This document shows positions 428-52,657 of a stretch of DNA of 64,000 bases, in pieces. The translations under genes and the position numbers were made by a program. Each line of letters starts with the position of its first letter. Position 1 is the first letter of the stretch. This stretch comes from Candidatus Micrarchaeota archaeon. Lineage in GTDB: Archaea > Micrarchaeota > Micrarchaeia > Micrarchaeales > CABMGC01. The notes under the pieces were generated by a model that saw only the letters and a program-made list of their open reading frames with translations, searched no databases and was not told the DNA's origin. The stretch is from assembly GCA_028867025.1 (NCBI GenBank), contig JAGWHC010000001.1:574595-638594 (forward strand), given 5' to 3'.

Positions 428-2254
428 CTATTTATACAACGGAGTGCCGTTCTTGTAGCTGAGGATTTTGTATATGCTGAAGGTATAGTTCCAGCCGAAA
501 GTGTCATAGGGCGCGCTGACCACGGGGCTCATCGTGAAGTTATCCAGTATCTTTGTGCAGCCCGGAGTCGTGTTGTCCAGTTTGTAGCCGCCCGTGTTGA
601 CGATGCAGTCCAGGCTGTATTCGAAGTACAGGCAGCCGTGCGAGAGGTTCAGCAGCTCGCTCCTGTAAAAAGGCGTGAATATCCAGTCTGCGTACATGTT
701 GCTCACGTTCAGCACGTTCCACAGCGGCGGCTCATAGCTGAGCACGAAGCAGCCGTTTGGTATGAGCGTGTAGTTGCCGAGTATTACATGCTCCTGGAAG
801 CGCTCCGCTGAGAACGGATATATGTCCTGCGGCTGTTTCGCGACGAAGGTCGAGAACTCGAACACCAGGTCGGAGACCATGATTATTATAAGCGCAACCG
901 CCACAGCAGCCGCAAATAGTTTCCTTGATTTCGCGGCCCGTTTTCTCCCCATCTTCCTTTTCCTTCTGGCCTTCGCCACTTTCCAGCGCGCAGCTGAGAC
1001 AAGGCCCGCTATGCCGCCCGCAGCCAGCATGGACACAGCGGGGAACGACACCATGAAATACCTTATGTCGTCCCCGGCTCCGTAGAGCGCCTCCCCGCCG
1101 TAGTAAGATGTGTAGAAGATGAAAACCAGAAAGAACCAGAAGAGGAGCAAGACCGCTTCCGTCCTGTGTTTGCCGCGAAACATGAAGATCGCGCCAAGCG
1201 CTGCGAAAAGCGTGTAGGTCAGCGGGAACTCCAGGTTGTAGCTCTGCCAGCCAGAGGGCGTGATTATGCTCCCGTATCCGCCGAGCCAGAAGACAACGTT
1301 CTCAGCCACGTTCATCCAAAAGTTGTATAGCGAAATCCTTGCTACCCACGGCGCCGCCCCGAAGGTATTCAGGCTCCAGCTGTTGTATATGAAGATCAGT
1401 TGCGGGATGATGAGGATGGCCAGGACAGCCGCGAGCAGCGCATGCATCTTCAGCTCCTTCTTCCCCTTGCCCGAGATGCTCTTCCAGTCGACAGCGACGA
1501 GCAGGGCGAGAGCCACAGGCAGTACAAGTATCGCATCAACCTTCATGGTCAGCGTGTATGCCAGCGCAAGGCACGCCGCCACTCCAGGCAACACCCGTCT
1601 CTCCTTCAGATACGTGAGTAAGAGCGCGATCGCGAGCAGGAACACTGTCAGCTCCGGGGTGTCGATTATCAGCGACCTGGAAAACGTGAGGAAGAGCGGG
1701 GTGAAGCCGAAGAGCGCGGTTGCAAGAAGCGCGACGTCTCCGTCCTTGAGCAGCATGAAGGCGATGTAGAACATAAGCAGTATCGAGATGGAGGACAGCA
1801 GCAGGACGAGATTGTAGCCCGGGGCGAAGCCCACGCCGAACGCGAGGAAGGCGGCGCTCAGCATGGTCGCCCATCCGGTCGGCTGCTGCAGCAGGCCCGC
1901 GGTGTTGCTGACGCAGTGCGGTCCAATGGAAAAGCTGCATATGCCTGCGTAGTGATCATAGACGATTGTCTTCGCAATGCTCATGTGTATGTACTCATCG
2001 TTGAACAGCTGCTGCGTCGGCTGCACGAATGCGAGCTCCAAAACGAGGAAGGCAACGACGATCAACGCCAGCATGGCCAGACGCTTCTTTCCTGCGTATG
2101 AGGCGTTCTTCGCCACGTACCTGAAGGCGAACACAGTACCAACGATCATCGCCGCGAGCAGCGCAATGTCGTAGTAGAAGTAAAAATACTCTCCGCTGGT
2201 CCACTCAAAGTAGCTGAGTATGCTGCCTATCGCTTGAAGCATTAAGTAGCTCAC
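428..2254 (-). CDS. Polytopic membrane protein, probable GT-C fold glycosyltransferase (more divergent PMT/ArnT-like)
   Basis: 608 aa with many TM segments. Has an acidic first-loop motif (FNDEYIH) and a C-terminal soluble domain with N-x-S/T sequons. Stop/start overlap with the upstream surface-protein gene. Confidence 0.5.
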   Translation of the reverse strand: MSYLMLQAIGSILSYFEWTSGEYFYFYYDIALLAAMIVGTVFAFRYVAKNASYAGKKRLAMLALIVVAFLVLELAFVQPTQQLFNDEYIHMSIAKTIVYDHYAGICSFSIGPHCVSNTAGLLQQPTGWATMLSAAFLAFGVGFAPGYNLVLLLSSISILLMFYIAFMLLKDGDVALLATALFGFTPLFLTFSRSLIIDTPELTVFLLAIALLLTYLKERRVLPGVAACLALAYTLTMKVDAILVLPVALALLVAVDWKSISGKGKKELKMHALLAAVLAILIIPQLIFIYNSWSLNTFGAAPWVARISLYNFWMNVAENVVFWLGGYGSIITPSGWQSYNLEFPLTYTLFAALGAIFMFRGKHRTEAVLLLFWFFLVFIFYTSYYGGEALYGAGDDIRYFMVSFPAVSMLAAGGIAGLVSAARWKVAKARRKRKMGRKRAAKSRKLFAAAVAVALIIIMVSDLVFEFSTFVAKQPQDIYPFSAERFQEHVILGNYTLIPNGCFVLSYEPPLWNVLNVSNMYADWIFTPFYRSELLNLSHGCLYFEYSLDCIVNTGGYKLDNTTPGCTKILDNFTMSPVVSAPYDTFGWNYTFSIYKILSYKNGTPLYK

Positions 2255-4170
2255 TTACTTCGCCCTCTACCGCGCAGGCGTGCACCGCGCGCCTCGTGCC
2301 CGCGCCCGAACCTCAGGAATATGTAGGCGTACACGGCAACAAGCGCAAGGCTCAGCGCCGCCAGCTCGTAGAGAGGGTTTATGCTGCCGCTCAACGCGCT
2401 GGAGACAAGCGAGGCGCAGGTGTCGCGCGAGCTGTATATGAATGCGAACTGCCTTATCGCGGTGATGTTGGCCTGACCGCACACCGAAACGTTGTAAACC
2501 TCTATGCCCTCTGAGAACGGTGTGCCTGATGAAGAGAAAACCGAGAAATCGCTGCTGTACCCATTCCCTATGTTGAGATTGTAGAAGCCGACTCCAGACG
2601 CATCGCTTATGTTCACCCCGAAATCCCTCACGCCCGAAGGCTGCAGTGTGAGATTTCTGAAGGTCACTCCCTGCGAGTTCTCTACACTTATCCCGTTTCC
2701 CTCAACCTTGCAATCGCTTATGCCTATGTTGCTCGAATTCATCACATCGATGCCCACCACGGTGTCGTTTATGGTCCCGCCGTTGCAGTTTATGTTTATG
2801 TTGCTGCCTCTCACCACGACCCCAACGCTGCACGGCCTTTGGACCAGCTGGGGAGTTGCGGGCGCGGCTATGGGCAGCAGCGTGCCGCCAGCCATGTCAT
2901 ATGTCCCGCTCCTGTACACCATGATGGCTGACATAGGTATGGAAAGGTTGTACGCCAGCGCGCAGTAACCGAGCCCGAAGCTGAACGACGGAGTCGTTGA
3001 GTCCTGTACGAACGAGCCGAGACCAGGGATGTAGCCCTGCGCGGTCATTATGGACGAGTTTATTCCAAGGGCTACCGAAGCGGTGTAATTGATGAAATAG
3101 AAGCCGGTGCCGTTCGCGGTGTAGTTCGGAGCGGTGCCCGGGTGCGCGAACGCCTTGTAAAGTATTGAATGGCTGCCCACGCCTCCCGATACTGGGTTTG
3201 TGCTGAATTCGGAGGGGTCGTACCTGTACAGGTAGTCGGTAAAGTTCCAGTTGCCGTCCTGCGGCGGCACAGCGACTACATATCTTATCTGTATGGCGCT
3301 GGTGAAGTTGTCCGGCAGTATCTGGAAGTTGAACGGCGGGTATATCGGCTGTATGTACATCGGCGTGAGGTTCACGTTCCTGGTTATGTTCAGCGTGTAC
3401 ATGACCAACTGATCGTAGGCAAGGAACGAGTAATCGATCTGGTACGGGTTGTATCGCACAACGCCGTTCTTGGAGAGCGTGTAATCGGAGACCGGGAAAA
3501 CCCTGTAGCCCTTTATCTGTCCGTAGCTTACGGCAGAGTAGTTGGTCTCTATGTCGCTCTGGGTGATGTTGTATGCGCCCATCGGCACGCTTTCGGCTAT
3601 GAATGAGAAATTGTTAGTGAAGCGGCTGTCGAAGAACTCGCTCATCTGCAGCTCCGTGTTGTTGTACCTGAAAGTGTGATTGAAAAGCGGGAATATGTAG
3701 GAGAAGCCAGCCGCCCTGGGCCCGAAGGCCGACGTGTTGTAGCCGAAAGGCATGAAGACGTTGACACGGAGATAATGCATGACAGTTACGTTGGAGGTGT
3801 TGTCTGCGAACGCTGGCGAGAACGCCGGATTGTCGTCCCCCATTATGTAGAGGCTGGAGTGCGGCGCAAGAGCTATGCTCGGATTGTTTACTGTGCAGTT
3901 GCGCAAGTACACTGACCTGTCGTTGGAGTTAACGGTGATTGATGACCCGCTGCCAATAGCTGCGCCTTTGCAGTTTACGCCGCTGTTGGACACGCTGGGC
4001 GAGAAAGCCACACTGACACTGCTGCAGGAATTGCCGGTCAGGTTGTAGGTCTGATTGCTTGCGCTCAACGTCACGGTGCAGGTCTGCGATGCAGATGCGG
4101 TACCCACTCTAAACATAATTGTCAGGAAAAAGAGCGACAGCACCAGAAGATGCATCTTTTGTAAATACAT
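2251..4170 (-). CDS. Secreted, heavily sequon-decorated beta-helix surface protein with C-terminal TM anchor (S-layer/surface glycoprotein candidate)
   Basis: ORF runs to 4245, but MYLQKMHLLVLSLFFLTIMFRVGTASA (Met at 4170 or 4155) looks like the signal peptide. Parallel beta-helix type repeats are present (NININCNGGTINDTVVGIDVMNSSNIGISDCKVEGNGISVENSQGVTFRNLTL). About two dozen N-x-S/T sites by hand count. C-terminal TM plus Arg-rich tail (LALVAVYAYIFLRFGRGHEARGARLRGRGRSK). Confidence 0.6.
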   Translation of the reverse strand: MYLQKMHLLVLSLFFLTIMFRVGTASASQTCTVTLSASNQTYNLTGNSCSSVSVAFSPSVSNSGVNCKGAAIGSGSSITVNSNDRSVYLRNCTVNNPSIALAPHSSLYIMGDDNPAFSPAFADNTSNVTVMHYLRVNVFMPFGYNTSAFGPRAAGFSYIFPLFNHTFRYNNTELQMSEFFDSRFTNNFSFIAESVPMGAYNITQSDIETNYSAVSYGQIKGYRVFPVSDYTLSKNGVVRYNPYQIDYSFLAYDQLVMYTLNITRNVNLTPMYIQPIYPPFNFQILPDNFTSAIQIRYVVAVPPQDGNWNFTDYLYRYDPSEFSTNPVSGGVGSHSILYKAFAHPGTAPNYTANGTGFYFINYTASVALGINSSIMTAQGYIPGLGSFVQDSTTPSFSFGLGYCALAYNLSIPMSAIMVYRSGTYDMAGGTLLPIAAPATPQLVQRPCSVGVVVRGSNININCNGGTINDTVVGIDVMNSSNIGISDCKVEGNGISVENSQGVTFRNLTLQPSGVRDFGVNISDASGVGFYNLNIGNGYSSDFSVFSSSGTPFSEGIEVYNVSVCGQANITAIRQFAFIYSSRDTCASLVSSALSGSINPLYELAALSLALVAVYAYIFLRFGRGHEARGARLRGRGRSK

Positions 4171-4248
4171 ACCGGAATTTAATCTGTTCTCATCTTTAAA
4201 TCTCTTTGCGCTCAAACTTGTTTTGTTTAAGGAAAGCGCGCGCAAGCG

Positions 4249-5862
4249 ATGCGAATGGCAGCCGCCAGAAAACCACCGGTCAAAAGAGTCAATGGCGTCC
4301 CTCCCAACAAGCGGACCGGAGGGCCGAGCGGCAGGAATAGGGTTTCAGGCAGGCCGGCCTTCGGGCCAGATGCCAAGAGAACCGTGTGCTACGCAGCGCT
4401 GCTTGCAGTGCTCCTCTTCGCTGCGTGGTACTCTCTAAGCCACATCAACGCCCCCTCAAACCTTGACGACGACACAGCCTACATGCAGTACGGCCTGGCT
4501 TTGGCACACGGCACATTCATGGAGAACGCAAATCCGACGCTTATCCTGAGGTCGCTGATGATTGCCCCGATAGGCGTGATCTACGCCCTGTTCGGATTCT
4601 CGCAGTTCACAAGCGCGCTTTGGAGCATACTGTGCTTTCTGGGCTCAATACTTCTAGCCTTCTTCATAGGCAAGCTGCTTTACGGCGAGTACGTGGGCGT
4701 CGTGTCTGCGCTGCTTCTGAGCTTCATGCCCACAGTCTCCGTGCTTGCGACCACTGTAGACGAGATGGTGCCTTTCGTTTTCGTGTCGTCGCTCTCCATG
4801 CTGTGCCTGATCCTTGGGATGAAAACCGGCAAGGCAAAATTCTATTTCTGCTCCGGGCTCGCTGCATTCGCCTCGTTCCTGGTCTCTCCTCTTGGCGCGA
4901 TAACAGCACTGCTTGTGCTTGTGTACTTGGCATTTAACCTGCTGAAGAAGAAAGAGCCTTCAAGAAGCGCGATGGCATTCACCGTTCTCGGGCTCGCATG
5001 TGGCGTACTGCTGGCCGCGGGCTTCAACGTCTACAGCCACGCAAGCCCGCTTATAGAGTTCACAAGCACGTACAGCTTCTACTCAAGCGAAAACGTCGCG
5101 GCGCTGGTCATACTTGACCCCATCTACTACCTTTCGAACATGTTCCCGCTGAACCTGCAGGCAAGCGCTTCTCCAGGGCCGCAGGTTCTCTACTACTATC
5201 TGCTGATACCTGCCGCCTTTTACCTGGTGATCAGGGAGAGGAAAAAGTCAGGAGTGTTGCTGTACTGGTTCGCATTCGCGCTCTCCTACTTGGCAATCGG
5301 GCCGATGCACCTGAGTTTCAACCCGTTCATGTATTACACAATACCAGAGCTGTGGAGATATCTGGACTCGGTGGCAATGCCGCTTGTGCTGATAGTCGCC
5401 GCTGGCATCGTCGGAATCGCCGGCGATGCGTACAGCCTGCTGGGCAGGCCTCTCTTCGCGGCTGTCGCTCTTGTGTCCATAGCGCTGGTGGGCTATGTCC
5501 TATCCCAATCATTCGCGTCGACAATCTGGCTCTACAACGCAAGCATGGCAGGCCTATCCGGGGACAGGCAGGTGGCTGCGTACCTGAGCACGCTTCCGTT
5601 TAGCGCAAACATCTATCTTCCGAGTTCGTCCCCATATGTGTTCACTTTCATACAGCTCTCTAACATGAGCAGAACTGATAACATAACGCTAATCGTTTCT
5701 CCGCCCAACTGCACGAGCGTGCCAAAGCGGGCATACGTGTACCTGCCATACGAGTGGTACAATTCATCCGCAACCGGGCAGCCAGCGCAACGTTACTGCG
5801 GTTGGGACCCAGCCATGTATCTTGAAAACTACGGGACTGTCTATTACACAGGCAGCACCTGA
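4249..5862 (+). CDS. GT-C fold membrane glycosyltransferase, PMT_2/ArnT-like
   Basis: 537 aa, polytopic. After TM1 the loop motif is LDDDTAYMQYG, then LLYGEYVGVVSALLLSFMP. Clear paralog of the genes at 1..387, 11756 and 13461. Confidence 0.65.
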   Translation: MRMAAARKPPVKRVNGVPPNKRTGGPSGRNRVSGRPAFGPDAKRTVCYAALLAVLLFAAWYSLSHINAPSNLDDDTAYMQYGLALAHGTFMENANPTLILRSLMIAPIGVIYALFGFSQFTSALWSILCFLGSILLAFFIGKLLYGEYVGVVSALLLSFMPTVSVLATTVDEMVPFVFVSSLSMLCLILGMKTGKAKFYFCSGLAAFASFLVSPLGAITALLVLVYLAFNLLKKKEPSRSAMAFTVLGLACGVLLAAGFNVYSHASPLIEFTSTYSFYSSENVAALVILDPIYYLSNMFPLNLQASASPGPQVLYYYLLIPAAFYLVIRERKKSGVLLYWFAFALSYLAIGPMHLSFNPFMYYTIPELWRYLDSVAMPLVLIVAAGIVGIAGDAYSLLGRPLFAAVALVSIALVGYVLSQSFASTIWLYNASMAGLSGDRQVAAYLSTLPFSANIYLPSSSPYVFTFIQLSNMSRTDNITLIVSPPNCTSVPKRAYVYLPYEWYNSSATGQPAQRYCGWDPAMYLENYGTVYYTGST

Positions 5863-6035: not shown

Positions 6036-9000
6036 ATGCCGAATAGGGCGCGCAGAAGGAGAGCCGCGGGTGCACGGAGGGGAAGCAAGAAAGCTCAGTC
6101 TGCGCTTGAATATCTACTTACATACAGCTGGGCCATATTGCTTGTAGCAATAATAGTGGCCGTGCTCTACCTCTTCGTATTCGCGCCTTCGAACGTTACT
6201 CCGAGCAGCTGCATATTCACCGGCGGCACTTACTGCCAGGACGTCGTGTTCAGCTCGAACACAGCTGGAACGAGCGTCGCGCTCTTCCTGACCAACACAC
6301 AGTCATATGCGATAGCAAATCCTTCTGTCACGCTCAACTACAGCGGCACTTCAACCGCGGCATCATGCTCGCCAAGCCTCGTTCTTGAGGGCGGTGCTAT
6401 AATATGCAACGTGAACGTACCACTCAAGGCCATAGCGCTAGGTTCTCTGGCATCAGGAAAGGTGGTGCTCAGCGCGGTACCGTGCCCAAGCGCGAACCTG
6501 GCGCAGTGCTCCTCGGGCCAGGTAGTCGCATACACCGGATCTTTCAACACTCACGTCTCGCCCCTTCTCTCGTCCACACCCTCATCAATAACGATCAGCG
6601 TCCTCAACACCACGCAGGCGGCTAACGGCAACAGGGATCCTGTAACTGCCACAGTTCTGCTTCTAGGAAACCCGATCGGCGGCGCTTCTGTAAGCTTTTC
6701 GCAGGGCGTAGTGAGCGGCTCGGGCACACCTTCCTCGTCCTTCGGGCCAAGCGCCACTACCACCGGCAGCAACGGCCAGGCGCTCGCATACATTTCAAGC
6801 ACGCAGACAGGCACAACGAACGTCATCGCGACATTCGCGGGGCAGACTGTCAACGCGATAGTCAATTTCGTCACGCCGGCGATCACCACAGTTAGCCTCG
6901 GACAGGACGTGATAAACACAGTCTGCTCGGGCAATTCCGGAACATATGTTCTCACTATTGACGGCCAGAGCTACACCTGCTCGCAGCTGCCCATACAGTT
7001 CTCCTACAACCCGAACACGCAGCACAGCTACGCCTGCATCTCCCCCATCTCTGGCTCTTCAGGAACAAGATACGTATTCTCTTCAGTGAGCGGCTGCTCC
7101 GCGAGCGGCGGACAGTCAGGCACATTTACAGTAGGAGCCGCTGGCACAAGTTGCTCGCTCAACTGCGAGTACCAGACGCAGTACTCGTTCTCCGATTCCG
7201 CAAGCCCCAGCATAGGGGGCAGCGTCTCTCCTGCAAGCCAGTTCTATCCGGCCGGCAACGGCGTCAGCATAGTCGCAACCCCCAACAGCGGTTATGGGTT
7301 CGTCGACTGGGCGGGCACCGGCCCAGGCAGCTATAGCAGCGGAACATCACAGACGGGCACTGTCACTATGAATGGGCCGATAACAGAGGTAGCGACATTC
7401 ATGCTTCTCACTACAATCACCAACGCGGCAACCAACGCCGCCACCAACGCGGTGACCAACGCTGTCACAAACGCTGTCACAAATGCAGCAACAACGATCA
7501 CCAACGCGGTGACCAACGCAGTCACTAATGCCGCTACATCAATCACCAACGCTGTGACCAATGCTGTAACCAACGCCGCAACCTCCATCACCAACGCAGC
7601 TACATCCATCACCAACGCAGGAACCTCCATCACCAACGCCGCTACATCGATTACCAACGCAGCAACTTCAATCACCAACGCTGTCACCAACGCAGGAACC
7701 TCCATCACCAACGCCGCTACATCGATTACCAACGCAGGAACCTCCATCACCAACGCCGTGACCAACGCAGCCACCAACGCCGCTACATCCATCACCAACG
7801 CCGTGACCAACGCCGCCACCAATGCCGCGACCACGATCACCAATGCTGTGACCAACGCAGCCACCAACGCAGCGACATCCATCACCAACGCCGTGACCAA
7901 CGCTGTAACCAACGCCGTCACAAACGCAGCAACAACGATAACCAATGCCGCGACCACGATCACCAATGCTGTGACCAACGCAGCCACCAACGCCGCTACA
8001 TCGATCACCAACGCTGTTACCAACGCCGCGACGAACGCATGCAACACATGCTCGACCAACAACTACGGCTGCGGAAGCAGCTGCTCCGAACGAGTATGCT
8101 ACTCCTACGCAGGAAACTGCGTTCCTGGCACCCCAGAGGCCACGATAAGCTGCAGCCAGACTAACCCGCCTCCTGCAGCATGGCAGTGCCTGGTACCGAC
8201 CACAATCACCAACGCGGCCACCAACGCCGCCACCAACGCAGCAACAACGATCACCAACGCCGTCACTAATGCCGTCACCAACGCCGCGACCTCAATCACT
8301 AATGCAGTCACCAACGCAGCCACAATAGCATGTGATGTGTGCTACGCCTCCAGCAACCCCGGCTGCCCAGCAGGCTGCCCGACTGCGCTATATTTCAAGG
8401 ATAGCGCATGCAGTCAATCTGGAACGCCATACGCTAGTTTCACCTGCGTCCTCCTTACAACGATCACCAACGCGGCCACCAACGCCGTCACCAACGCAGG
8501 CACCAACGCAGCCACCACAGTCACCAACGCCGTCACCAACGCAGGCACCAACGCAGCAACTACAGTTACCCACTTCACCAACGCGGGCACCAACGCCGCG
8601 ACTACAATTACCCACTTCACCAACGCAGGCACCAACGCCGCTTCCGGTGCGTCCACCAACGCTCCTAGCGTCTGCAGCTTCAGGGGTGGCACTCCGATCT
8701 ACATGGCAAACGGCCAGATCAAGCCCATAGAGGAGCTACAGCCAGGAGAGGTTTACATGTCGTACGATCCGGCTACAAGAAGCCTGTATCCTGATGTGGT
8801 TGAGAAGCTTGTTACCGCAACAGTGCACGGCGAATACGTGATAAATGACGTTGGCACAGACGCGGTGGAAGAATTCTACACCAAGAGCGGCTGGAAGAGC
8901 GCTGATCAGATCAAGGTCGGCGATTCTATCCTGAACGCTATGTCAATGACATGGACGCCTGTTTACAGCGTTTCCTTCGTCAACACCACATTCACTGTTT

Positions 9001-9074
9001 ACGACTTCTTGGGAACCTCGGGCAACAGCGAACTTGTTGCAGGAGGGTATGTGGCAGACGGAACCATATGCTGA
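6036..9074 (+). CDS. Class III (type IV pilin-like) signal peptide surface protein: Ig-like modules, T-N-A-x repeat tracts, Cys knots, C-terminal Hint domain
   Basis: N-terminus MPNRARRRRAAGARRGSKKAQSALEYLLTYSWAILLVAIIVAVLYLF (DUF361-like Q-x-x-x-E-Y). Big_1-like segment (NGNRDPVTATVLLLGNPIGGASVSF...TGTTNVIATFAG). InlB-B-repeat-like segment (GGSVSPASQFYPAGNGVSIVATPNSGYGFVDWAGTG...VTMNGPITEVATF). Repeats and the Hint domain are listed separately. Confidence 0.85.
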   Translation: MPNRARRRRAAGARRGSKKAQSALEYLLTYSWAILLVAIIVAVLYLFVFAPSNVTPSSCIFTGGTYCQDVVFSSNTAGTSVALFLTNTQSYAIANPSVTLNYSGTSTAASCSPSLVLEGGAIICNVNVPLKAIALGSLASGKVVLSAVPCPSANLAQCSSGQVVAYTGSFNTHVSPLLSSTPSSITISVLNTTQAANGNRDPVTATVLLLGNPIGGASVSFSQGVVSGSGTPSSSFGPSATTTGSNGQALAYISSTQTGTTNVIATFAGQTVNAIVNFVTPAITTVSLGQDVINTVCSGNSGTYVLTIDGQSYTCSQLPIQFSYNPNTQHSYACISPISGSSGTRYVFSSVSGCSASGGQSGTFTVGAAGTSCSLNCEYQTQYSFSDSASPSIGGSVSPASQFYPAGNGVSIVATPNSGYGFVDWAGTGPGSYSSGTSQTGTVTMNGPITEVATFMLLTTITNAATNAATNAVTNAVTNAVTNAATTITNAVTNAVTNAATSITNAVTNAVTNAATSITNAATSITNAGTSITNAATSITNAATSITNAVTNAGTSITNAATSITNAGTSITNAVTNAATNAATSITNAVTNAATNAATTITNAVTNAATNAATSITNAVTNAVTNAVTNAATTITNAATTITNAVTNAATNAATSITNAVTNAATNACNTCSTNNYGCGSSCSERVCYSYAGNCVPGTPEATISCSQTNPPPAAWQCLVPTTITNAATNAATNAATTITNAVTNAVTNAATSITNAVTNAATIACDVCYASSNPGCPAGCPTALYFKDSACSQSGTPYASFTCVLLTTITNAATNAVTNAGTNAATTVTNAVTNAGTNAATTVTHFTNAGTNAATTITHFTNAGTNAASGASTNAPSVCSFRGGTPIYMANGQIKPIEELQPGEVYMSYDPATRSLYPDVVEKLVTATVHGEYVINDVGTDAVEEFYTKSGWKSADQIKVGDSILNAMSMTWTPVYSVSFVNTTFTVYDFLGTSGNSELVAGGYVADGTIC
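7410..8663 (+). repeat. In-frame coding tandem repeats: 12-nt ACC-AAC-GCN-NNN (T-N-A-[AVG]) units interspersed with 9-nt T-[ST]-I units
   Basis: Three tracts: 7410-8039 (40 TNA units + 17 T[ST]I units = 210 aa exactly), 8199-8330 (8 units) and 8457-8663 (12 units). Codons are synonymously scrambled. A 53-nt exact duplicate occurs at 7818-7870 and 7941-7993, giving a 123-nt higher-order period. Confidence 0.95.
8673..9071 (+). other. C-terminal Hint (Hedgehog/intein-like) domain, 133 aa, with no C-extein
   Basis: Starts at Cys880: CSFRGGTPIYMANGQIKPIEELQPGEVY (block A-like). Then KLVTATVHGEYVI (Thr/His block B-like), WKSADQIKVGDSIL and VYDFLGTSGNSELVAGGYVADGTIC-stop. There is no terminal His-Asn and no downstream residue. 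Confidence 0.7.
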
Positions 9075-9101: not shown

Positions 9102-9770
9102 ATGCATACTAGAAAGAAGCATAAAGCATCTACGCTGCCGACACTGTCCGCGCTGATTGCTTTCGGCCTAATAGCGCTCTATTTCACATATTTTTCCAGT
9201 AATGTTTCAGCCGCATCCTATCTTCCCACACTTAACGAGCTCAACAGCGTTTTCGGAAGCGGTTCTTACGAAACGTACGTTGTGCCGCACTGCATGAATT
9301 CAACCTTATTGTACAACACCAGCAGGGTAAATGACGTATGCTCCGTCATCTTTATACAGAGCACTAACAACAGTCGGGTGCCATATGAGATATCAGGAGT
9401 CTCCTACTCCTTCGCCACTCCCTCTGCAGCTGACGCCTACATAGCCAACGTCATACCCCACTTCAATTCGTCCCCCTGGCCTGGCGGTTCAAATACATCT
9501 AGCGAAGCAATACCTAACTTCAACTCGACTCCATGGTCTCAGGGTCCAAAGACATTTGGCAACCTGACCCCCAGCAGCGCGACTCTCTACTACACTTCGG
9601 TGAACTACGGCCTCGGCACGTACTACAATACAGTAATCACAATGTACGTCCTTTCAGGATCAAGAGTTCTTTCAGTCTCAGGGATCATGAGCTATGCGCA
9701 GAACATGACCAGAGCGCGCGCCGCTGTAGCAGAGCTTCTCCACATCCAGTACCTTAAAGCAACGCAGTAG
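9102..9770 (+). CDS. Secreted/anchored sequon-rich protein of unknown function
   Basis: 222 aa. N-terminal basic region plus hydrophobic helix (TLPTLSALIAFGLIALYFTYF). Several N-x-S/T sites. C-terminal ...LHIQYLKATQ resembles the end of the next gene. Confidence 0.5.
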   Translation: MHTRKKHKASTLPTLSALIAFGLIALYFTYFSSNVSAASYLPTLNELNSVFGSGSYETYVVPHCMNSTLLYNTSRVNDVCSVIFIQSTNNSRVPYEISGVSYSFATPSAADAYIANVIPHFNSSPWPGGSNTSSEAIPNFNSTPWSQGPKTFGNLTPSSATLYYTSVNYGLGTYYNTVITMYVLSGSRVLSVSGIMSYAQNMTRARAAVAELLHIQYLKATQ

Positions 9771-9883: not shown

Positions 9884-10618
9884 ATGGTCTCCAGTGTCTC
9901 TAATCCGGATGTTCGAGCTACTCCGACAGCCGGCAAGAAAGGCGGCGGAATACGCTATGTTATCAGTGGCCTGATTGTACTCCTAGTCATCGGCGTTATA
10001 AGCTTCTTTGCGATATCTTCCTATACTCCACCCCAACCTACGACAACAGCCTCAACTACCATCAAGGCTACCACAACGGCTCCGCCCCCACTTCCGTTCA
10101 CATTCAACAGTATACTGCTGGCGTCCAACGCGTTATATGGGTTTCCGCAGCAGCCGCAGTTCACTGACTATTACTTCAACTTCACCAATGCCGGCTGGGC
10201 CCATTCCCAGTACGCGGTGAATTTCACCTACCCGCTGTTTACCAACAACTTCACGCCTCCTGCAAACTATACTGTAAGCGTGCCCGCGCGGTACTCCAAC
10301 CTCACCTCTCCCTTCGCTTCAATAATTAGCGTGTGGGCTTATGCCACAGCAAGCTCTGCGGCGCAGAATTTCCCAGCTGTTGGTTCAACAATGTGTCGCA
10401 ACCTGAACGCTACCGGCTCGATGCGCACGGTCACTTCTGCAATAGGCTCGGTAACCACCTATTGCAGCGGTACTTTGTACGGCAGTAGCACCGAGGGCGT
10501 GCTCTTCAACCAAGGAAACGTTTCTGCTGAGGTCATCTTCTTCGGCGTGCTGCAGAAGCTCAACCCCTCATACCTGAATACCACAGCAAGGCACCTCTAT
10601 CTGAAGCTAACGCAGTAA
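9884..10618 (+). CDS. Membrane-anchored protein with Thr/Pro-rich stalk, unknown function (distant paralog of 9102)
   Basis: 244 aa. TM (YVISGLIVLLVIGVISFFAI) followed by PPQPTTTASTTIKATTTAPPP. Sequon-rich. Ends ...RHLYLKLTQ. Confidence 0.5.
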   Translation: MVSSVSNPDVRATPTAGKKGGGIRYVISGLIVLLVIGVISFFAISSYTPPQPTTTASTTIKATTTAPPPLPFTFNSILLASNALYGFPQQPQFTDYYFNFTNAGWAHSQYAVNFTYPLFTNNFTPPANYTVSVPARYSNLTSPFASIISVWAYATASSAAQNFPAVGSTMCRNLNATGSMRTVTSAIGSVTTYCSGTLYGSSTEGVLFNQGNVSAEVIFFGVLQKLNPSYLNTTARHLYLKLTQ

Positions 10619-10644: not shown

Positions 10645-11706
10645 TCAAAACAATGCCGTTATCTCCCTGTATCTGAAATCCTTTGGCCTATTTCCTATGA
10701 TCAGTATCTCGCGCCCGCATTTTTTACAGGCAAGGTCCTCGCCCAAGTTCCATTTTCTTATGTAGAAACCGTCCCTCTCTATCACCAGCTCGCCGCAGTT
10801 CGGACAGTAGGTGTTCCCGTAGGGGTTCCCCGGCACATTGCCTATGTACACGTAATTTAGCCCATTCTTCCTGGCGATGTCGTAGTGCTTCTTCAGCGTC
10901 TCGTAAGGCGTTTCGGGGTAGTTGAGCATCTTGTAGTCAGGGTGGAAGCGAGTGAACTGGATAGGTGTCTCCGGACCAAGGCTGTCTGCGACCCATTTCG
11001 TAAGCTCGTTGCAGGCTTCAATCGAATCGCCAACCCCAGGTATTATGAGGTCGGTCAGCTCGAGATGTATACCAACTTTCTTCAGTTCGAGCATCGCCTC
11101 CTTTACTGGTTCATTAGAGACCACTGCCTCGTACTTGTTAACGAATTTCGTTTCTCCGCTGCCCTTGAAATCCACAACCACCGCGTCTATAAGGCCCTTC
11201 ATGGCCTGCACTGCCTCCTTGGTCATGTAGCCATTTGTCACCCAGACATTCTTCAGCCCATTTTCATGCGCCAACCTGGCCACATCGAGTGCGTACTCTA
11301 TGAATATGGTGGGCTCGTTGTACGTGTAGGCTATGCTCTGCGTATTGTTCTCCAGCGCCATCTCCACCGCCCTCTTTGGACTTATGTATACGCCCTTCAC
11401 CTCGCGCTCCTTGCTTATGTTGTGGTTCTGGCAGAAGAGGCAGCCCCAGTTGCAGGAGCTGGTCCCAATTCCAAAGACGTAGGTGCCTGGCATGAAATGA
11501 TTGAAAGGCTTCTTCTCTATCGGGTCTATTTGAATGGCCTCTACAAGGCCGTAGTTCATCAGATATAACTTGCCGCCTATGTTCTGCCTGACAAAACAGA
11601 ATCCATGGGATCCCTCTGGTATCTTGCAGAGCCTAGCGCAGGCGTGGCACTCAATCCTTCTGTCCCGCAACCGACTGTAGAGGCCAGCCTCGCTCTTCAT
11701 AAACAT
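10645..11706 (-). CDS. amrS: AmmeMemoRadiSam system radical SAM enzyme (PflA-like activase family)
   Basis: 353 aa. N-terminal Cys cluster (CHACARLCKIPEGSHGFCFVRQN) and radical SAM motif CNWGCLFCQN. C-terminal Cys pairs CPNCG...CKKCG. Confidence 0.8.
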   Translation of the reverse strand: MFMKSEAGLYSRLRDRRIECHACARLCKIPEGSHGFCFVRQNIGGKLYLMNYGLVEAIQIDPIEKKPFNHFMPGTYVFGIGTSSCNWGCLFCQNHNISKEREVKGVYISPKRAVEMALENNTQSIAYTYNEPTIFIEYALDVARLAHENGLKNVWVTNGYMTKEAVQAMKGLIDAVVVDFKGSGETKFVNKYEAVVSNEPVKEAMLELKKVGIHLELTDLIIPGVGDSIEACNELTKWVADSLGPETPIQFTRFHPDYKMLNYPETPYETLKKHYDIARKNGLNYVYIGNVPGNPYGNTYCPNCGELVIERDGFYIRKWNLGEDLACKKCGREILIIGNRPKDFRYREITALF

Positions 11707-11755
11707 ATATATGATTTCCAGCTATTTAACACTATTCCCATGTGACGGCGTAAAA

Positions 11756-13330
11756 ATGCCCCAAAACCGCACGAGCAAAGCAAATTCGGCAAAAGTGAAA
11801 TGCAGCTCTGCCCTCTACGCCGTAGCCCTCGTCCTTATCATCCTGCTCGGTGTCTTTCTAGCTTACCTTTTCTACTACGGGCCAAGCACCGCCAATGTGT
11901 CAGACAACTTCCTTTACGCCGACTACGCCCACCAGATATACGTGGGTCATGCCGGGTCGCTTCCCAGTAATGACGTGCTGGCGCAGCAGTACCTGCTTCT
12001 GGCCGGAATTGCCGCATTCTACGCTGCTTTCGGAGTCGCAAGCCCGTTCACAGCTTCCCTTTTCGGAGTGCTGTGCTTTGCGCTTACAATAGCCATCATA
12101 TACAAGATTGGCGCGCTACTCTACGGCAGAGGGGCCGGACTCGTCTCAGCGCTCGTGTACTCATTCAATCCCGTAGCGGTAATAAATGCCTCTTATGTAG
12201 GCGATAACGGTCCAATGGCGCTCTTTGCGTCCGCGTGCGTATTGTTCCTGATTCTCGGAATGCAGGAAAAACGTGTGGCGCGCTCAGGAACGTACTTCCT
12301 GCTTTCTGGATTTTCCGCAATGATAGGCGTTCTTGTTACAGTCCAGTCTGCAGAGATACTGGTGTTCGTAGCGCCATTCGCCCTCTTCTACGCGATTAGG
12401 GAAAAGAGCACCGCTTCGCTTCTTAACATAGGTCTGTTTGCTCTTGGAATTGCCATCGCGGTGGCGTGCACCGCGCTTGTCGAGTTTTCTATCGGCAACC
12501 CACCGCTTCTCGTGTTCAGCCTTAATTACAACGCCTATTCCGCCGGAGCAGGACACACGCCACAAATTGGGAACTATACGCGTTGGCTCTTTCCCGCCAA
12601 CCCAGCATCCCAGCTCAACCCCGCACAGGCTGCCTATAGCAGCGGCATGTCGAGCGGGCTTTACGGCTACGCCGCGCTGCTTGGCGCCGTATACCTATTA
12701 TTCCGCAGGAACTTCCGCTTTTTTGTCCCCGCCTTCTGGTCCGTCTCCACTCTCCTTTACATGGGTTACGGCTCGCTGAGCCTGCTTGACTATGTGCCGA
12801 TAAGCTATTCGCGCGTACGCTTTATGCTGATATTCATACCTGCGCTTGCTCTCATAATAGGGTTCTCGCTCCTGGACATGGCAGAAATCCTAAGGAAAAA
12901 CAGGCTCAAGATTTTAGGCCTTCTACTTCCTGGGCTTATTGTCATTGCGCTTTTCATAAACTCAGCCGGTATAATTCAGTTCGTCGGCCTGTCGCAGTAC
13001 AAACACACGTATCAGTTGTCACAGACAGGCAGCTTCCTGCTAGGTCTGCCTGCAGACGTGCCAGTTTACGGCAACATCGAGCCGCTTGACGTATACGCCC
13101 ACTACAAGCCCAATTTTGTAGAATCGGAATACGACTTCTTCCCGCCTTTTTACTTTGGGTCCAACTGCAGCATGCTTGCTGTCCCGAATGCAAGCGTTGC
13201 AAAAATATGCGGCCTCAGGGAGGCATTCGCCTCTTCCCAGCCTCCGGCCTATCTGGATGCGTACCGCCTGTTCGACAACGACAGCTTCAGGATTTATGAA
13301 AACATCACTGTCTACTACAAGGCCGCGTAA
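11756..13330 (+). CDS. GT-C fold membrane glycosyltransferase, PMT_2/ArnT-like
   Basis: ORF opens at 11711. Met at 11756 (MPQNRTSK) sits about 45 nt after an AACATATATATG TATA-like element. Loop motif VSDNFLYADYA, then LLYGRGAGLVSALVYSFNP. Confidence 0.65.
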   Translation: MPQNRTSKANSAKVKCSSALYAVALVLIILLGVFLAYLFYYGPSTANVSDNFLYADYAHQIYVGHAGSLPSNDVLAQQYLLLAGIAAFYAAFGVASPFTASLFGVLCFALTIAIIYKIGALLYGRGAGLVSALVYSFNPVAVINASYVGDNGPMALFASACVLFLILGMQEKRVARSGTYFLLSGFSAMIGVLVTVQSAEILVFVAPFALFYAIREKSTASLLNIGLFALGIAIAVACTALVEFSIGNPPLLVFSLNYNAYSAGAGHTPQIGNYTRWLFPANPASQLNPAQAAYSSGMSSGLYGYAALLGAVYLLFRRNFRFFVPAFWSVSTLLYMGYGSLSLLDYVPISYSRVRFMLIFIPALALIIGFSLLDMAEILRKNRLKILGLLLPGLIVIALFINSAGIIQFVGLSQYKHTYQLSQTGSFLLGLPADVPVYGNIEPLDVYAHYKPNFVESEYDFFPPFYFGSNCSMLAVPNASVAKICGLREAFASSQPPAYLDAYRLFDNDSFRIYENITVYYKAA

Positions 13331-38411: not shown

Positions 38412-39392
38412 ATGTTCAAGGATATGCGTCTTTACCTGGCAGCGATGGCCGGTGGGAAGAGGAAAGGCAAGGGCAAGCCATTCGGCAAAAAGGCCCGGGA
38501 GCAGGCCGCAATCGAATATATCATGACCTACGGCCTGACCCTCATTGTTGTAGCACTGGTGCTTGGGGCGCTGTACCAGCTAGGGGTCTTCAATTCGCTT
38601 ATTCTCGGCCCAAGGGCTCTGCCTGGCTCATGCTCAGTTGTCAGAACCGCAGCCGGAGAGTCGCTTGTAGGGTTTTGCAGCGGAATACTGCCGGAGTTTG
38701 TCGCGGTTCTTTCAGGCCAAACAACAGGCTCGGGCGGAGGTGGAGGCGGCGGGGGTGGCGGTGGAGGCGGTGGAGGCGGCGGAGGCCAGGCATGCGTGAA
38801 CATGACTGCGCCAAGCATTAACATAAACACACATGGATACAACACAGTGGTGCTTTGGATGTACTGGAATGGCACGCTGAACGAGAGCCCGGTTGGATTC
38901 CCCGGATACTTCGTCTGGCTGTCTACAAACAGTTGCATAGGCTTCTCCACGGGCAACAGCGACGACTATGGGGTCAGCGCAAACAACCTAGTGGATAGGT
39001 GGACCATGGTGGCAGTGAACTTTTACAACGGACCGTACACGCTGAACAACACCCTGTACCTCAACGCAGTGAACGAGACGCCATACCAGTGTCTGCCAAC
39101 TGCGCATACCGGAATAGCGAAGAACGTTCTGCTGATAGGAAGCTCCACAGGCTCGAAATACAGATTCACGGGCGCAATAGCTGACGTTCAGATCTACAAC
39201 ACCTCTCTAGGCGACGCCGAGATACAAGGTCTCTATAATGAGGGGCTCGGAGGCGCGCCGATAGATCTGCGAAACCTTGTGGCGTGGTTCCCGCTCAATG
39301 CCAACGCCAACGACTACGGCGGCACCAACCAGAATCTCGTGTTCGCAAAGTGCGCCTACGGCTACCTCAGCTCTTATACTCCGCCTCCGTAG
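38412..39392 (+). CDS. Class III (pilin-like) signal peptide protein with Gly18 linker and LamG/concanavalin-like lectin domain
   Basis: KKAREQAAIEYIMTYGLTLIVVALVLGALY parallels the 6036 N-terminus. 18 consecutive Gly codons at 38733-38786. C-terminal W.MVAVNF...LYLNAV...FTGAIADVQIYNTSLGDAEIQGLYNEG is LamG-like. Confidence 0.75.
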   Translation: MFKDMRLYLAAMAGGKRKGKGKPFGKKAREQAAIEYIMTYGLTLIVVALVLGALYQLGVFNSLILGPRALPGSCSVVRTAAGESLVGFCSGILPEFVAVLSGQTTGSGGGGGGGGGGGGGGGGGGQACVNMTAPSININTHGYNTVVLWMYWNGTLNESPVGFPGYFVWLSTNSCIGFSTGNSDDYGVSANNLVDRWTMVAVNFYNGPYTLNNTLYLNAVNETPYQCLPTAHTGIAKNVLLIGSSTGSKYRFTGAIADVQIYNTSLGDAEIQGLYNEGLGGAPIDLRNLVAWFPLNANANDYGGTNQNLVFAKCAYGYLSSYTPPP

Positions 39393-52653: not shown

Positions 52654-52657
52654 CGCC

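Follow-up and report, generated by a model that had tools for sequence, protein, structure and literature searches.

The gene analysed here, which lies in a window of 64,000 nucleotides, is best explained as specifying a modular adhesin, with an intimin/invasin-like Ig body, on the surface of an archaeon of the Micrarchaeota (DPANN), and the match of the C-terminal ~132 residues of its product to the Hint fold far exceeds chance. This Hint domain is a member of a distinct clade with Ser (at times Cys or Thr) at position 1, a DxxE motif at block B, Asn/Asp in place of the block F histidine, and Asp/Thr in place of that of block G. Judging from alignments and predicted structure, we consider it somewhat favoured (roughly 55%) that the domain cleaves itself at its own N-terminus by an N-to-O acyl shift and would thereby detach from the adhesin stalk. 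The 1012-residue protein comprises, in order, a class III signal, the Ig-like body, a repeat stalk, and the terminal Hint domain (Table 1). The ORF list and its translation show the reading frame proposed in the first-pass annotation to be real, and its description of a secreted, repeat-bearing surface protein with a pilin-type signal and a stand-alone terminal Hint is borne out.

Table 1. Positions of the gene, its parts, and neighbouring features in the window.
Feature	Position	Strand	Basis
Whole gene: 1012-aa modular surface protein	6036..9074	+	ORF list and translation
Lys/Arg-type positive n-region and predicted prepilin-peptidase site (…GSKKA/Q21)	6036..6095	+	sequence motif
Pilin-like hydrophobic N-terminal segment QSALEYLLTYSWAILLVAIIVAVLYLFVFAP, Glu25 at +5	6096..6188	+	sequence; AlphaFold helix
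Conserved beta-rich body	6198..7400	+	Pfam; AlphaFold pLDDT 74.7; Foldseek
Repeat tract 1: T-N-A-x and (S/T)-I-T-N-A-x units, Thr/Ala/Asn stalk	7417..8038	+	Tandem Repeats Finder
Cys-rich module 1, aa 669-718, 9 Cys	8040..8189	+	sequence
Repeat tract 2: TNAx units	8197..8323	+	Tandem Repeats Finder
Cys-rich module 2, aa 766-804, 7 Cys	8331..8447	+	sequence
Repeat tract 3: TNAx and THFTNAG units	8464..8638	+	Tandem Repeats Finder
Predicted scissile junction, Cys880 (-1) / Ser881 (Hint position 1, nucleophile)	8673..8678	+	alignments
Terminal Hint domain, aa 881-1012 (132 aa)	8676..9071	+	AlphaFold, Foldseek, profile, phmmer
Block B equivalent D942-A-V-E945 in place of T-x-x-H	8859..8870	+	alignment with BIL2 T-V-N-H and canonical T-x-x-H
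Block F Asp990 (VYD)	9003..9005	+	clade tally
Asn997 at block F His position	9024..9026	+	clade tally
Asp1008 at penultimate-His position, then G-T-I-C; no terminal Asn	9057..9071	+	alignment
Gene next downstream of the adhesin: 222 aa, sequon-rich, with signal or anchor sequence	9102..9770	+	translation
A-family gene, linked downstream: membrane protein with one transmembrane pass and a sequon-rich ectodomain	9884..10618	+	profile, phmmer
Canonical intein in the window's own helicase	45460-48723		C1, T-P-E-H, H-N/S kept

The N-terminus (MPNRARRRRAAGARRGSKKA followed by QSALEYLLTYSWAILLVAIIVAVLYLFVFAP, the residues at -2, -1, +1, and +5 being Lys, Ala, Gln, and Glu) reads as a class III (prepilin-type) signal with predicted cleavage between A20 and Q21, as had been suggested before. 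The charged -2 residue, Ala -1, and Gln +1 match archaeal class III rules and EppA-type sites, and the same signal pattern has been reported for EppA-type archaeal prepilins, at sites such as KGQV and RAQI (PMC4371748). K19, Q21, S22, A23, and E25 were invariant or nearly so in an alignment of 12 relatives, and AlphaFold predicted residues 24-48 to form a helix. As Pfam PF04021 gave no match to the protein, the class III assignment rests on the motif. No pilin fold was found among the Foldseek matches of the body model, and neither a prepilin peptidase nor other pilus machinery was found among the large ORFs of the window that were scanned, in agreement with the first-pass annotation.

The body consists of a family-specific Cys-containing domain, a Big_1 Ig-like domain (aa 185-278; E = 2e-7, under the Big_1 cut-off), and an InlB B-repeat/Flg_new_2 domain (aa 390-455; Flg_new_2 E = 1.7e-9), and its model found its best Foldseek matches in the Ig arrays of the adhesins intimin and invasin. 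Searches with the N-terminal 455 residues recovered 22 protein-database relatives (E<=1e-3) and 228 relatives in GTDB genomes, nearly all of them from Micrarchaeota. The stalk between body and Hint (aa 456-880) holds 60 TNA units. Repeat tract 1, with periods of 12, 21, 42, and 45 nt, stands where orthologues have Ser/Thr-rich linkers. Linker-flanked Cys-rich modules like module 1 also occur in P0001, P0002, L006, and L023, and module 2 is comparable to CNTCYATTNPGCPGGCP in P0001. The C-termini of the adhesin family vary, with about one fifth of members bearing this Hint type and others carrying NHL or Kelch propellers or Gly-rich modules at the same position.

The Hint domain was modelled with a pLDDT of 93.1 and a pTM of 0.87, and its top Foldseek matches were the bacterial intein-like (BIL) domains 2lwy and 6y75 (TM 0.85-0.87), with mini-inteins and Hedgehog 1at0 next in rank. 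A family profile searched against PDB sequences matched BIL2 at 6e-17 and 2lwy at 1.3e-16, while phmmer identified 571 relatives of the domain at E<=1e-3, the best at 7e-49. Pfam Hint-type families were sub-threshold on the query alone (PT-HINT, 16.2 bits against a cut-off of 27.7), and the relatives P0042 (28.0 bits) and P0030 (29.4 bits), for which PT-HINT is the best Pfam family, exceeded the same cut-off. Some canonical-type Hint matches bear the source label 'pretoxin HINT domain-containing protein'. The domain is most similar to BIL and pretoxin-HINT domains, and the Hint fold first proposed for the last ~133 residues holds. Past the last Hint strand there is GTIC alone, with no His-Asn and no C-extein, which supports the earlier view that protein splicing is impossible and leaves the domain's own N-terminal junction as the sole possible place of action.

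Three independent alignments, with Pfam Hom_end_hint, with the family, and with PDB BIL2 (a C1A structure sequence), place canonical Cys1 on Ser881, and F882 aligns with canonical Phe2. The segment G-Y-V-A-D-G lines up with canonical G-x-L-V-H-N, and these alignments show replacement of every canonical histidine (three in all) as well as of the block B Thr and the terminal Asn. D942 and E945 are invariant in the A1 subfamily alignment of 33 sequences, and we infer from homology that Ser881, Asp942, Glu945, Asp990, and Asp1008 may cluster in one site. Because the Thr/His pair is replaced by an invariant Asp/Glu pair, the chemistry of Hedgehog proteins and inteins cannot simply be assumed.

The 78 clade domains tallied were picked by the D/E pair at block B, so that D/E in 78/78 is definitional. 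Position 1 was Ser in 49, Cys in 4, and Thr in 2, a nucleophile in 55/55 informative cases, while position -1 was variable (Cys in 9/55, otherwise Ser, Ala, Gly, Thr, or Ile). Canonical relatives had Cys in 200 versus Ser in 13 at position 1, and T (177) and H (172) at the block B columns. The Asp990 column was Asp in 70/78 clade domains and Asn in 159 canonical relatives, the Asn997 column Asn in 46 and Asp in 23 versus His in 117 canonical relatives, and the Asp1008 column, that of the penultimate His, Asp in 45 and Thr in 23, with a variable Asn column. The nucleophile at position 1 in every informative case beside a varying position -1, the invariance of D942 and E945, and the near-constant Asp990 point to selection acting on an active site and not to decay. 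Second copies of tandem pairs in P0182, P0185, and L024 lack the block B Glu, a loss that illustrates drift under relaxed constraint.

The Ser1/DxxE type was found in 55 distinct proteins, 34 of which carry a tandem pair. The last Hint lies 0-8 residues from the protein end in 53/55, the other two being cut by a contig end, and no non-Hint domain follows the Hint in any of the 55; of the canonical-type Hint matches in the same search, 43% end <=15 residues from the protein C-terminus. All named carriers belong to Micrarchaeota, and the cultivated Ca. Micrarchaeum sp. strain A_DKE has a family gene whose Hint contains a related TxxD block. The combination of adhesin and terminal Hint recurs in P0001, P0026, P0035, L002, L003, L006, L009, L024, L032, L023, L080, and L081. 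The architecture recurs across Micrarchaeota, often with two Hints, which tempers the novelty first claimed for it; the literature searched contained no description of an archaeal pilin-signal surface protein with a terminal Hint, and to that extent the claim stands.

Under the favoured reading, export and prepilin-peptidase processing would leave the adhesin anchored through its N-terminal helix, whether to the membrane or within a pilus-like fibre. Ser881 would then attack the carbonyl of Cys880 in an N-to-O acyl shift, the only reaction that the topology permits, with the carboxylates of Asp942, Glu945, Asp990, and Asp1008 assisting instead of histidines, and the resulting oxyester would be resolved by water or another nucleophile, freeing the Hint and leaving a stalk that ends at Cys880. 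Such chemistry is established: inteins with Ser at position 1 undergo autoproteolysis driven by Ser/Thr N-to-O acyl shifts. Cleavage by BIL domains is described at either of their termini, N or C (PMC7765530), and the reference list of PMC8616854 includes work on an intein with a compensated block B His.

No catalytic residue of Hint domains is more conserved than the block B His, we know of no characterised Hint domain with a DxxE block, and a Hint lacking this His and two other histidines could be inactive. A catalytically dead Hint, serving without cleavage as a compact beta-fold binding module, cap, or folding unit at the adhesin tip, is the alternative we take most seriously, although we think it rather unlikely. 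It would fit the wholesale replacement of the canonical residues, and the propellers and Gly-rich modules at the tips of other family members, which are non-catalytic, suggest that the C-terminus is an exchangeable recognition module. A purely structural domain, however, would gain nothing from keeping a nucleophile at position 1 throughout the clade, nor from an invariant Asp and Glu exactly at the TxxH positions and an Asp at block F, and these residues do drift in the degenerate-looking second copies.

Conserved membrane-protein genes of two families, A and B, lie downstream of the Hint-bearing copies of the adhesin. The A-family profile matched at 7/7 Hint loci versus 1/20 non-Hint loci and the B-family profile at 7/7 versus 0/20, counts whose Fisher tests are not corrected for shared ancestry. 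A genes likewise occur at L080 and L081, and a pairwise search found an A-like gene at one further non-Hint locus, L022. The A-family product encoded in our window scored 1.4e-25 with a profile compiled from seven other Hint-bearing loci, using the first gene downstream in each, and pairwise phmmer searches gave 1e-14 to 1e-22. The gene immediately downstream of the adhesin, named a hypothetical protein by NCBI (KGH57_03505), occupies the slot of an A or B gene at other Hint loci, and its product had no match by phmmer or the B profile.

These membrane proteins are obvious partner candidates for Hint-bearing adhesins, and their linkage would suit a transfer of the Cys880 ester to an acceptor (A/B proteins, an envelope glycan or lipid, an adhesin subunit, or a host surface) that fixes the distal end of the stalk. 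The Hedgehog-like topology, with a terminal Hint and its cargo upstream, points the same way, as does the ability of BIL2 to place its upstream domain onto substrate lysines through isopeptide bonds without ATP (PMC8616854), and the tandem Hints are hard to square with simple self-removal. We nevertheless regard such a transfer as improbable, though less so than the two readings below: no sterol- or adduct-recognition region follows the Hint, and the A/B linkage may reflect co-assembly rather than chemistry.

The first-pass annotation had made Cys880 position 1, 'KLVTATVHGEYVI' block B, with 'TATVH' as a mis-spaced TxxH, and an N-to-S shift and thioester the route to cleavage between Val879 and Cys880. 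Cys880 does directly precede the domain, as in the closest relative P0023, and a thiol is the commoner Hint nucleophile, but the register described above predicts cleavage between Cys880 and Ser881 through an oxyester, the Cys880 column is seldom Cys in the clade, TxxH falls on D942-A-V-E945, and 'KLVTATVH' aligns with a non-catalytic strand whose His is not conserved, making this version very improbable. Least credible is a remnant of a polymorphic-toxin pretoxin HINT whose toxin was lost or moved to a separate cassette, for which the PT-HINT scores of relatives, the variable C-termini, and the small genes that follow, as immunity genes do, would speak, since PT-HINT is defined by its place just before a toxin (PMC3482391), nothing but Hint ends the clade proteins, and the A/B products differ from immunity proteins in being ectodomain proteins anchored in the membrane and conserved from locus to locus.

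The best structural and profile matches, the A-type BILs (Clostridium thermocellum, 2LWY) and the ciliate BUBL BIL2 (6Y75, 6TMM), belong to a group of mini-Hints in non-conserved, often secreted proteins that perform autocleavage or acyl transfer rather than true splicing (PMC7765530, PMC8616854). BILs keep Cys1, TxxH, and a C-terminal His-Asn (A-type, BIL2), and normally a C-terminal flank, whereas the Micrarchaeota Hint has Ser1, DxxE, no catalytic His, no Asn, and nothing downstream, and sits in an archaeal protein with a class III signal. Pretoxin HINT (PF07591), the closest Pfam family, is also found in secreted modular proteins with variable ends, directly ahead of a toxin domain whose release it is predicted to bring about (PMC3482391); the 55 clade members have no toxin, and the query is below threshold. 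Hedgehog HhC (1AT0) shares the fold (TM 0.68) and, as predicted here, a terminal Hint acting only at its own N-terminus, although sequence likeness is marginal (Pfam Hint E = 0.025). In Hedgehog, this reaction frees the secreted domain upstream and can also modify it. Hedgehog is eukaryotic and has Cys, TxxH, and a sterol-recognition region after the Hint, all of which the Micrarchaeota Hint lacks. Canonical inteins have the fold and block order in common with the terminal Hint, and many start with Ser, as it does, but they are inserted in conserved host proteins and carry TxxH, a terminal (His-)Asn, and a +1 nucleophile; the terminal Hint is without the C1, T-P-E-H, and H-N/S of the helicase intein in the same window. 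At the other end, Streptococcus sanguinis PilB and EppA-type archaeal prepilins (PMC8179133, PMC4371748) have the same class III signal, Gln +1, Glu +5, and hydrophobic helix, and modular type IV pilins, like our protein, add a functional module for adhesion on the C-terminal side (PMC8179133). The 1012-residue protein is far larger, has no adjacent pilus genes, and would be processed and built into a filament only by prediction; we know of no self-processing module reported for these pilins or prepilins.

The Micrarchaeota domain is thus an undescribed Hint variant in which the catalytic Cys/Thr/His are swapped for Ser/Asp/Glu and which recurs across the phylum. If active, it may offer these tiny symbionts a way to trim or covalently fix their adhesins.

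Database searches agree with structure prediction on the last 133 residues of the 1012-residue product, which the first-pass annotation had read as a Hint domain. With the query alone, all Pfam matches were sub-threshold: Hom_end_hint (E = 1.4e-3), PT-HINT (PF07591; E = 0.013, 16.2 bits; cut-off 27.7) and Hint (PF01079; E = 0.025, 14.6 bits; cut-off 29.7). The PT-HINT cut-off is passed by two database relatives of the same clade, P0042 (28.0) and P0030 (29.4), with a third, P0001 (27.2), just below it. NCBIfam gave only noise, a word-index protein search with the 133-aa C-terminus gave no match, and a PDB sequence search gave three weak matches, all to chains containing an intein or Hint. An exhaustive phmmer search with the same 133 residues retrieved 571 proteins at E ≤ 1e-3, of which 52 reached E ≤ 1e-10 and the best 7e-49, and a profile of the family matched, among PDB sequences, Tetrahymena BIL2 (6e-17), a bacterial intein-like (BIL) domain of C. 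thermocellum (1.3e-16) and 8w20 (7e-13), whose chain of 1368 aa bears the name 'Intein C-terminal splicing domain-containing protein'. The terminal Hint was modelled with AlphaFold on 33 relatives (pLDDT 93.1, pTM 0.87), and Foldseek placed the BIL domains 2lwy and 6y75/6tmm nearest to this model (TM 0.85-0.87, rmsd 1.7-2.2 Å), followed by mini-inteins and the Hedgehog autoprocessing domain 1at0 (TM 0.68); the best 50 of 51 PDB matches at E ≤ 1e-3 were BIL, intein or Hedgehog Hint domains. With the N- and C-terminal blocks found in canonical order, the profiles and the predicted structure point decisively to a Hint fold.

While the earlier observation largely stands, its residue assignments need correction. 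Cys880 had been taken as Hint position 1, but three independent alignments place the canonical Cys1-Phe2 on Ser881-Phe882: position 2 of the Hom_end_hint profile falls on Phe882, MAFFT family alignments pair the canonical C-F-x-x-G-T with S-F-R-G-G-T of the query, and the mutated position 1 of the BIL2 C1A crystal sequence pairs with Ser881. Cys880 is therefore position -1. Similarly, the proposed Thr/His block, KLVTATVH, is an upstream strand, and Thr-x-x-His (T-V-N-H in BIL2) aligns instead with D942-A-V-E945, a pair invariant in the 33-sequence subfamily alignment. At the C-terminal end, G-Y-V-A-D1008-G1009 aligns with the canonical G-x-L-V-H-N, with Asp for the penultimate His and Gly in the terminal Asn column, which is variable in relatives. 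The Hint ends four residues before the stop codon, and with only GTIC after its last strand the domain has neither the terminal His-Asn nor a C-extein, as had been noted.

From the phmmer matches and the loci fetched from genomes we tabulated 342 distinct Hint domains, 78 of which are of the DxxE type, that is, with Asp and Glu at the block B Thr and His positions. Ser, Cys or Thr occupies position 1 in all 55 informative cases of the clade. The Glu is lost in a few second copies of tandem pairs (P0182, P0185 and the fetched locus L024), which shows how catalytic positions behave once constraint is relaxed. By these alignments, the DxxE clade has kept a nucleophile and swapped the Thr/His machinery for carboxylates.

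Residues at catalytic positions of DxxE-type Hint domains and their canonical relatives; Asp and Glu in block B define the DxxE type and are not an independent result
Position	DxxE type (n = 78)	Canonical relatives
Position 1	S 49, C 4, T 2, rest truncated	C 200, S 13, T 2
Position -1	variable	variable
Block B	D and E 78/78 (selection criterion)	T 177, H 172
Block F (VYD)	D 70	N 159
Block F His position	N 46, D 23	H 117
Penultimate His position	D 45, T 23	H 115

Protein splicing, the lipidation of Hedgehog and the release of toxins all rest on Hint domains. The terminal Hint is closest to BIL domains by structure, to PT-HINT by Pfam and to Hedgehog by topology, yet it lacks a defining feature of each of these and of inteins. 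Inteins are in-frame insertions in a conserved host protein, flanked by exteins on both sides and ending in Asn, usually His-Asn, before a +1 Cys, Ser or Thr, none of which applies to the query Hint. The window itself offers an internal contrast, a canonical intein within the gene for a Hel308/Ski2-type helicase (ATPTL/C-LPADQ…, block B M-T-P-E-H, …FIVHN/S-LGVNLPA), such that the standard Cys/TxxH/His-Asn set is kept in a cytoplasmic intein of the same genome. In Hedgehog proteins a sterol- or adduct-recognition region follows the Hint, where the query has its four terminal residues, and the Pfam Hint match expected of a Hedgehog domain falls short of significance here. PT-HINT is defined as lying immediately N-terminal to a toxin domain (PMC3482391), whereas neither a toxin nor any other domain follows the Hint among 55 distinct DxxE carriers; the last Hint stops 0-8 residues before the protein end in 53 of these, the other two being without a visible end. 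This terminal position is not unique to the clade, as 43% of 139 canonical-type Hint proteins also end within 15 residues of the Hint, and some canonical-type matches are labelled 'pretoxin HINT domain-containing protein'. A-type BIL domains have a conserved C-terminal His-Asn and B-type BIL domains all intein splicing motifs but the C-terminal one (PMC7765530); the terminal Hint, although BIL domains are its closest structures, has neither His-Asn nor TxxH. In the literature searched, neither a DxxE Hint nor a Hint domain on an archaeal protein with a class III signal was described, in keeping with the earlier remark that no described archaeal surface or pilin-like protein was known to use a Hedgehog-style terminal Hint.

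The ORF that carries this domain is uninterrupted over its 1012 codons and, as first proposed, begins with what reads as an archaeal class III signal. Its exact product was not found in the protein collection, while the two genes downstream encode exact matches to KGH57_03505 and KGH57_03510 of a 'Candidatus Micrarchaeota archaeon' MAG. The N-terminal sequence of the product is MPNRARRRRAAGARRGSKKA/QSALEYLLTYSWAILLVAIIVAVLYLFVFAP, with the slash at the predicted cleavage site. Archaeal class III signals have a charged residue at -2 and Gly, Ala or Ser at -1, with a hydrophobic H-domain immediately following the cleavage site, and EppA-type prepilins have Gln at +1 and Glu at +5, with example sites KGQV and RAQI (PMC4371748). 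In the query, Lys19 lies at -2, Ala20 at -1, Gln21 at +1 and Glu25 at +5, and about 26 hydrophobic residues come next. Across 12 aligned relatives K19, Q21, S22, A23, E25, Y26, Y30 and W32 are invariant or nearly so, and AlphaFold predicts a helix at residues 24-48 followed by beta domains. Pfam Class_IIIsignal (PF04021) did not match residues 1-60, and in a Foldseek search with residues 1-455 intimin and invasin Ig arrays dominated, with no pilin among the best 50 matches; for these two reasons the pilin-type signal, well supported by its motif, is not proven. A pilus ATPase, platform protein or prepilin peptidase was not found among the large ORFs scanned in the window, in line with the first-pass annotation for the peptidase and ATPase, and pilin genes are frequently encoded apart from their machinery (PMC4858521).

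The N-terminal 455 residues have 22 database relatives at E ≤ 1e-3 and, in genomes scanned with an N-terminal alignment of this adhesin family, 228 tblastn-confirmed relatives across GTDB. Nearly all are labelled Micrarchaeota, with a few 'Marsarchaeota' and a Methanothrix-labelled MAG that holds 2 of the 78 family loci listed; database names are 'hypothetical protein' or 'Ig-like domain-containing protein'. Several paralogues per genome are common, and the complete genome of the cultivated Ca. Micrarchaeum sp. strain A_DKE has three family loci. In the conserved N-terminal two-thirds the signal is joined to a beta domain containing Cys, to Big_1 and to an InlB B-repeat. Beyond these come linkers, either Ser/Thr-rich or of TNAx type, that carry small Cys-rich modules, and then a variable C-terminal tip of NHL or Kelch propellers, Gly-rich modules or a Hint. 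In the TNAx tract of the query, 425 aa long, the T-N-A-x unit recurs in frame about 60 times, with variants of the form (S/T)-I-T-N-A-x (25% Thr, 24% Ala, 16% Asn); at this stalk position orthologues have ordinary Ser/Thr linkers, and L002 and P0187 carry related TNA(A/G/S)T repeats. The family was also considered as the Micrarchaeota S-layer protein and rejected, as that protein is the product of a PF05123-type gene of another family, Micr_00292 (bioRxiv 10.1101/2021.04.28.441871).

A survey of related genomes for the class III signal joined to a C-terminal Hint revealed that 6 of the 43 family genes readable to their stop codon end in this way. Four end in two Hints (L002, the closest relative at 78% identity, L003, L024 and L032) and two in one (L006 and L009, the latter identical to P0001). 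Two further family genes, cut by contig ends, also reach a Hint, and P0026 and P0035 have the same architecture as the query. In A_DKE the terminal Hint of locus L023 (NZ_CP060530.1, 448153-461517, reverse strand) lies in an ORF frame-shifted relative to the N-terminal part, at about 7207-7275 of the locus; the shift may mark a pseudogene, an error in sequencing or a programmed event. This Hint has Cys1 and T-P-S-D in block B, so that an acid replaces the His there too. Of the 55 DxxE carriers, 34 contain a pair of Hints, 20 a single Hint and one carries four. Database entries of about 240 aa made up of two Hints are not stand-alone Hint proteins but gene-calling fragments, since at L080 and L081 the stop-to-stop ORF runs upstream into a class III N-terminal domain; public gene calls shorten many genes of this kind (P0172-P0186, L080 and L081) to fragments that start at an internal Met, despite continuous ORFs.

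Every Hint-terminated adhesin gene has, directly downstream, genes from two families, A (about 240-320 aa) and B (about 165-260 aa), whose products cross the membrane once and bear sequon-rich ectodomains; neither is matched by any Pfam family, and both are almost always absent behind non-Hint paralogues. The loci concerned are the window (with its A gene), L001-L003, L006, L023, L024, L032, L080 and L081. Profiles of A and of B each match 7 of 7 Hint loci; of the 20 non-Hint loci for which 2 kb or more could be read downstream, A matches one and B none (Fisher p about 1e-5 and 1e-6, respectively, ignoring phylogeny). Pairwise phmmer indicates that the A and B proteins are homologous between loci, with the exception of the B-position gene of L023, which has no match to any other locus. 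At L080 and L081, which were found independently, both A and B are present, and L022, a non-Hint locus of A_DKE, carries an A-like gene. In the window, the A member was recognized without being a profile seed (1.4e-25). Between it and the Hint gene lies a gene for a secreted or anchored, sequon-rich protein of 222 aa that matches neither A nor B and for which no homologue was detected in any fetched locus. Speculatively, the A and B proteins may act either as acceptors or as partners for docking.

The query locus is syntenic with that of P0001 in its small membrane-protein genes, opposite-strand radical SAM gene and PMT_2 glycosyltransferase gene, and the radical SAM gene and one PMT_2 gene are also syntenic in L001 and L002. 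Around it, the adhesin has at least four PMT_2 genes (GT-C, dolichyl-phosphate-mannose-type) in the window, a set that would fit a heavily glycosylated Thr-rich stalk, of which these enzymes may be the glycosylators. Upstream, a gene for a 664-aa secreted, sequon-rich protein that is membrane-anchored at its C-terminus and has an Arg-rich tail, without a Pfam match, is kept beside family genes in L002 (71% identity), L005 and L035. Elsewhere in the window a second protein has the same N-terminal motif (…KKAREQAAIEYIMTYGLTLIVVALVLGAL…), and goes on into a poly-Gly linker, behind which lies a concanavalin-like domain, Laminin_G_3. It resembles a further modular surface protein with a class III-like signal, with Glu rather than Gly, Ala or Ser before the Gln.

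Coordinates of features in the window
Feature	Position	Strand
PMT_2 glycosyltransferase	428-2254	-
664-aa secreted, membrane-anchored protein	2251-4245	-
PMT_2 glycosyltransferase	4249-5862	+
Hint-terminated adhesin ORF	6036-9074	+
TNAx tract within the adhesin ORF	7417-8638	+
222-aa sequon-rich protein (KGH57_03505)	9102-9770	+
A-family membrane protein (KGH57_03510)	9884-10618	+
Radical SAM/zinc-ribbon protein	10645-11706	-
PMT_2 glycosyltransferase	11711-13330	+
PMT_2 glycosyltransferase	13461-15074	+
Laminin_G_3 putative surface protein	38412-39392	+
Hel308/Ski2-type helicase with intein	45460-48723	+
FtsZ/tubulin-family paralogue	51631-52713	-
FtsZ/tubulin-family paralogue, adjacent to the preceding	52658-53716	-

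Because nothing follows the Hint, the only reaction available to it would be at its N-terminal junction, and with a conserved Ser at position 1 this would be an N-to-O acyl shift on the Cys880-Ser881 bond, yielding an oxyester. Resolution by water or another nucleophile would free a 132-aa Hint and leave the stalk ending at Cys880; the acid/base and bond-straining roles would fall to the carboxylates that stand in place of Thr/His and in blocks F and G. The mechanistic inference of the first-pass annotation, which had placed self-cleavage between Val879 and Cys880, is in this respect plausible. BIL domains undergo autocleavage at either end (PMC7765530), in BIL2 the upstream domain is transferred to lysines without ATP (PMC8616854), and compensation for the block B His is the subject of work cited in the reference list of the latter paper. 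We put the chances that the DxxE Hint is catalytically competent slightly above even, the main doubt being that every canonical histidine is absent and the main ground for belief being the conservation pattern. The exchange of His for carboxylates may, speculatively, be an adaptation to acidic or oxidising surroundings, an idea prompted by the description of Micrarchaeota as acidophilic. A disulfide between Cys880 and Cys1012 may likewise form, again speculatively; Cys is present at both equivalent positions only in the query, P0023 and P0001.

The most far-reaching proposal, to which we assign a probability of roughly one in six, is that an active, His-free Ser/Asp/Glu Hint at the tip of a pilin-anchored stalk converts the final peptide bond of that stalk into the oxyester and then passes the C-terminus of the stalk to a nucleophile on a partner. 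The partner could be the co-encoded A or B membrane protein, the cell's own envelope, another subunit or the surface of a Thermoplasmatales host; the module would possibly be acid-adapted, and tandem Hints would permit two successive transfers.

All characterised Hint domains that we know of depend on the histidine of block B or on a compensated form of it, and a conserved clade that keeps the nucleophile, has Asp/Glu for Thr/His and drops every other histidine would widen the known catalytic repertoire. If active, it could provide a self-cleaving tag for acidic or oxidising conditions. As a member of the family is encoded in the cultivated A_DKE, the idea is directly testable. Little is known about host attachment in Micrarchaeota and other DPANN cells. 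The adhesin family represents a phylum-wide, multi-copy pilin-signal set with exchangeable tips, of which the Hint tip is potentially reactive and linked to A and B; were the transfer of the stalk to a partner true, it would amount to a Hedgehog/BIL2-like, enzyme-free covalent tethering system of a DPANN episymbiont.
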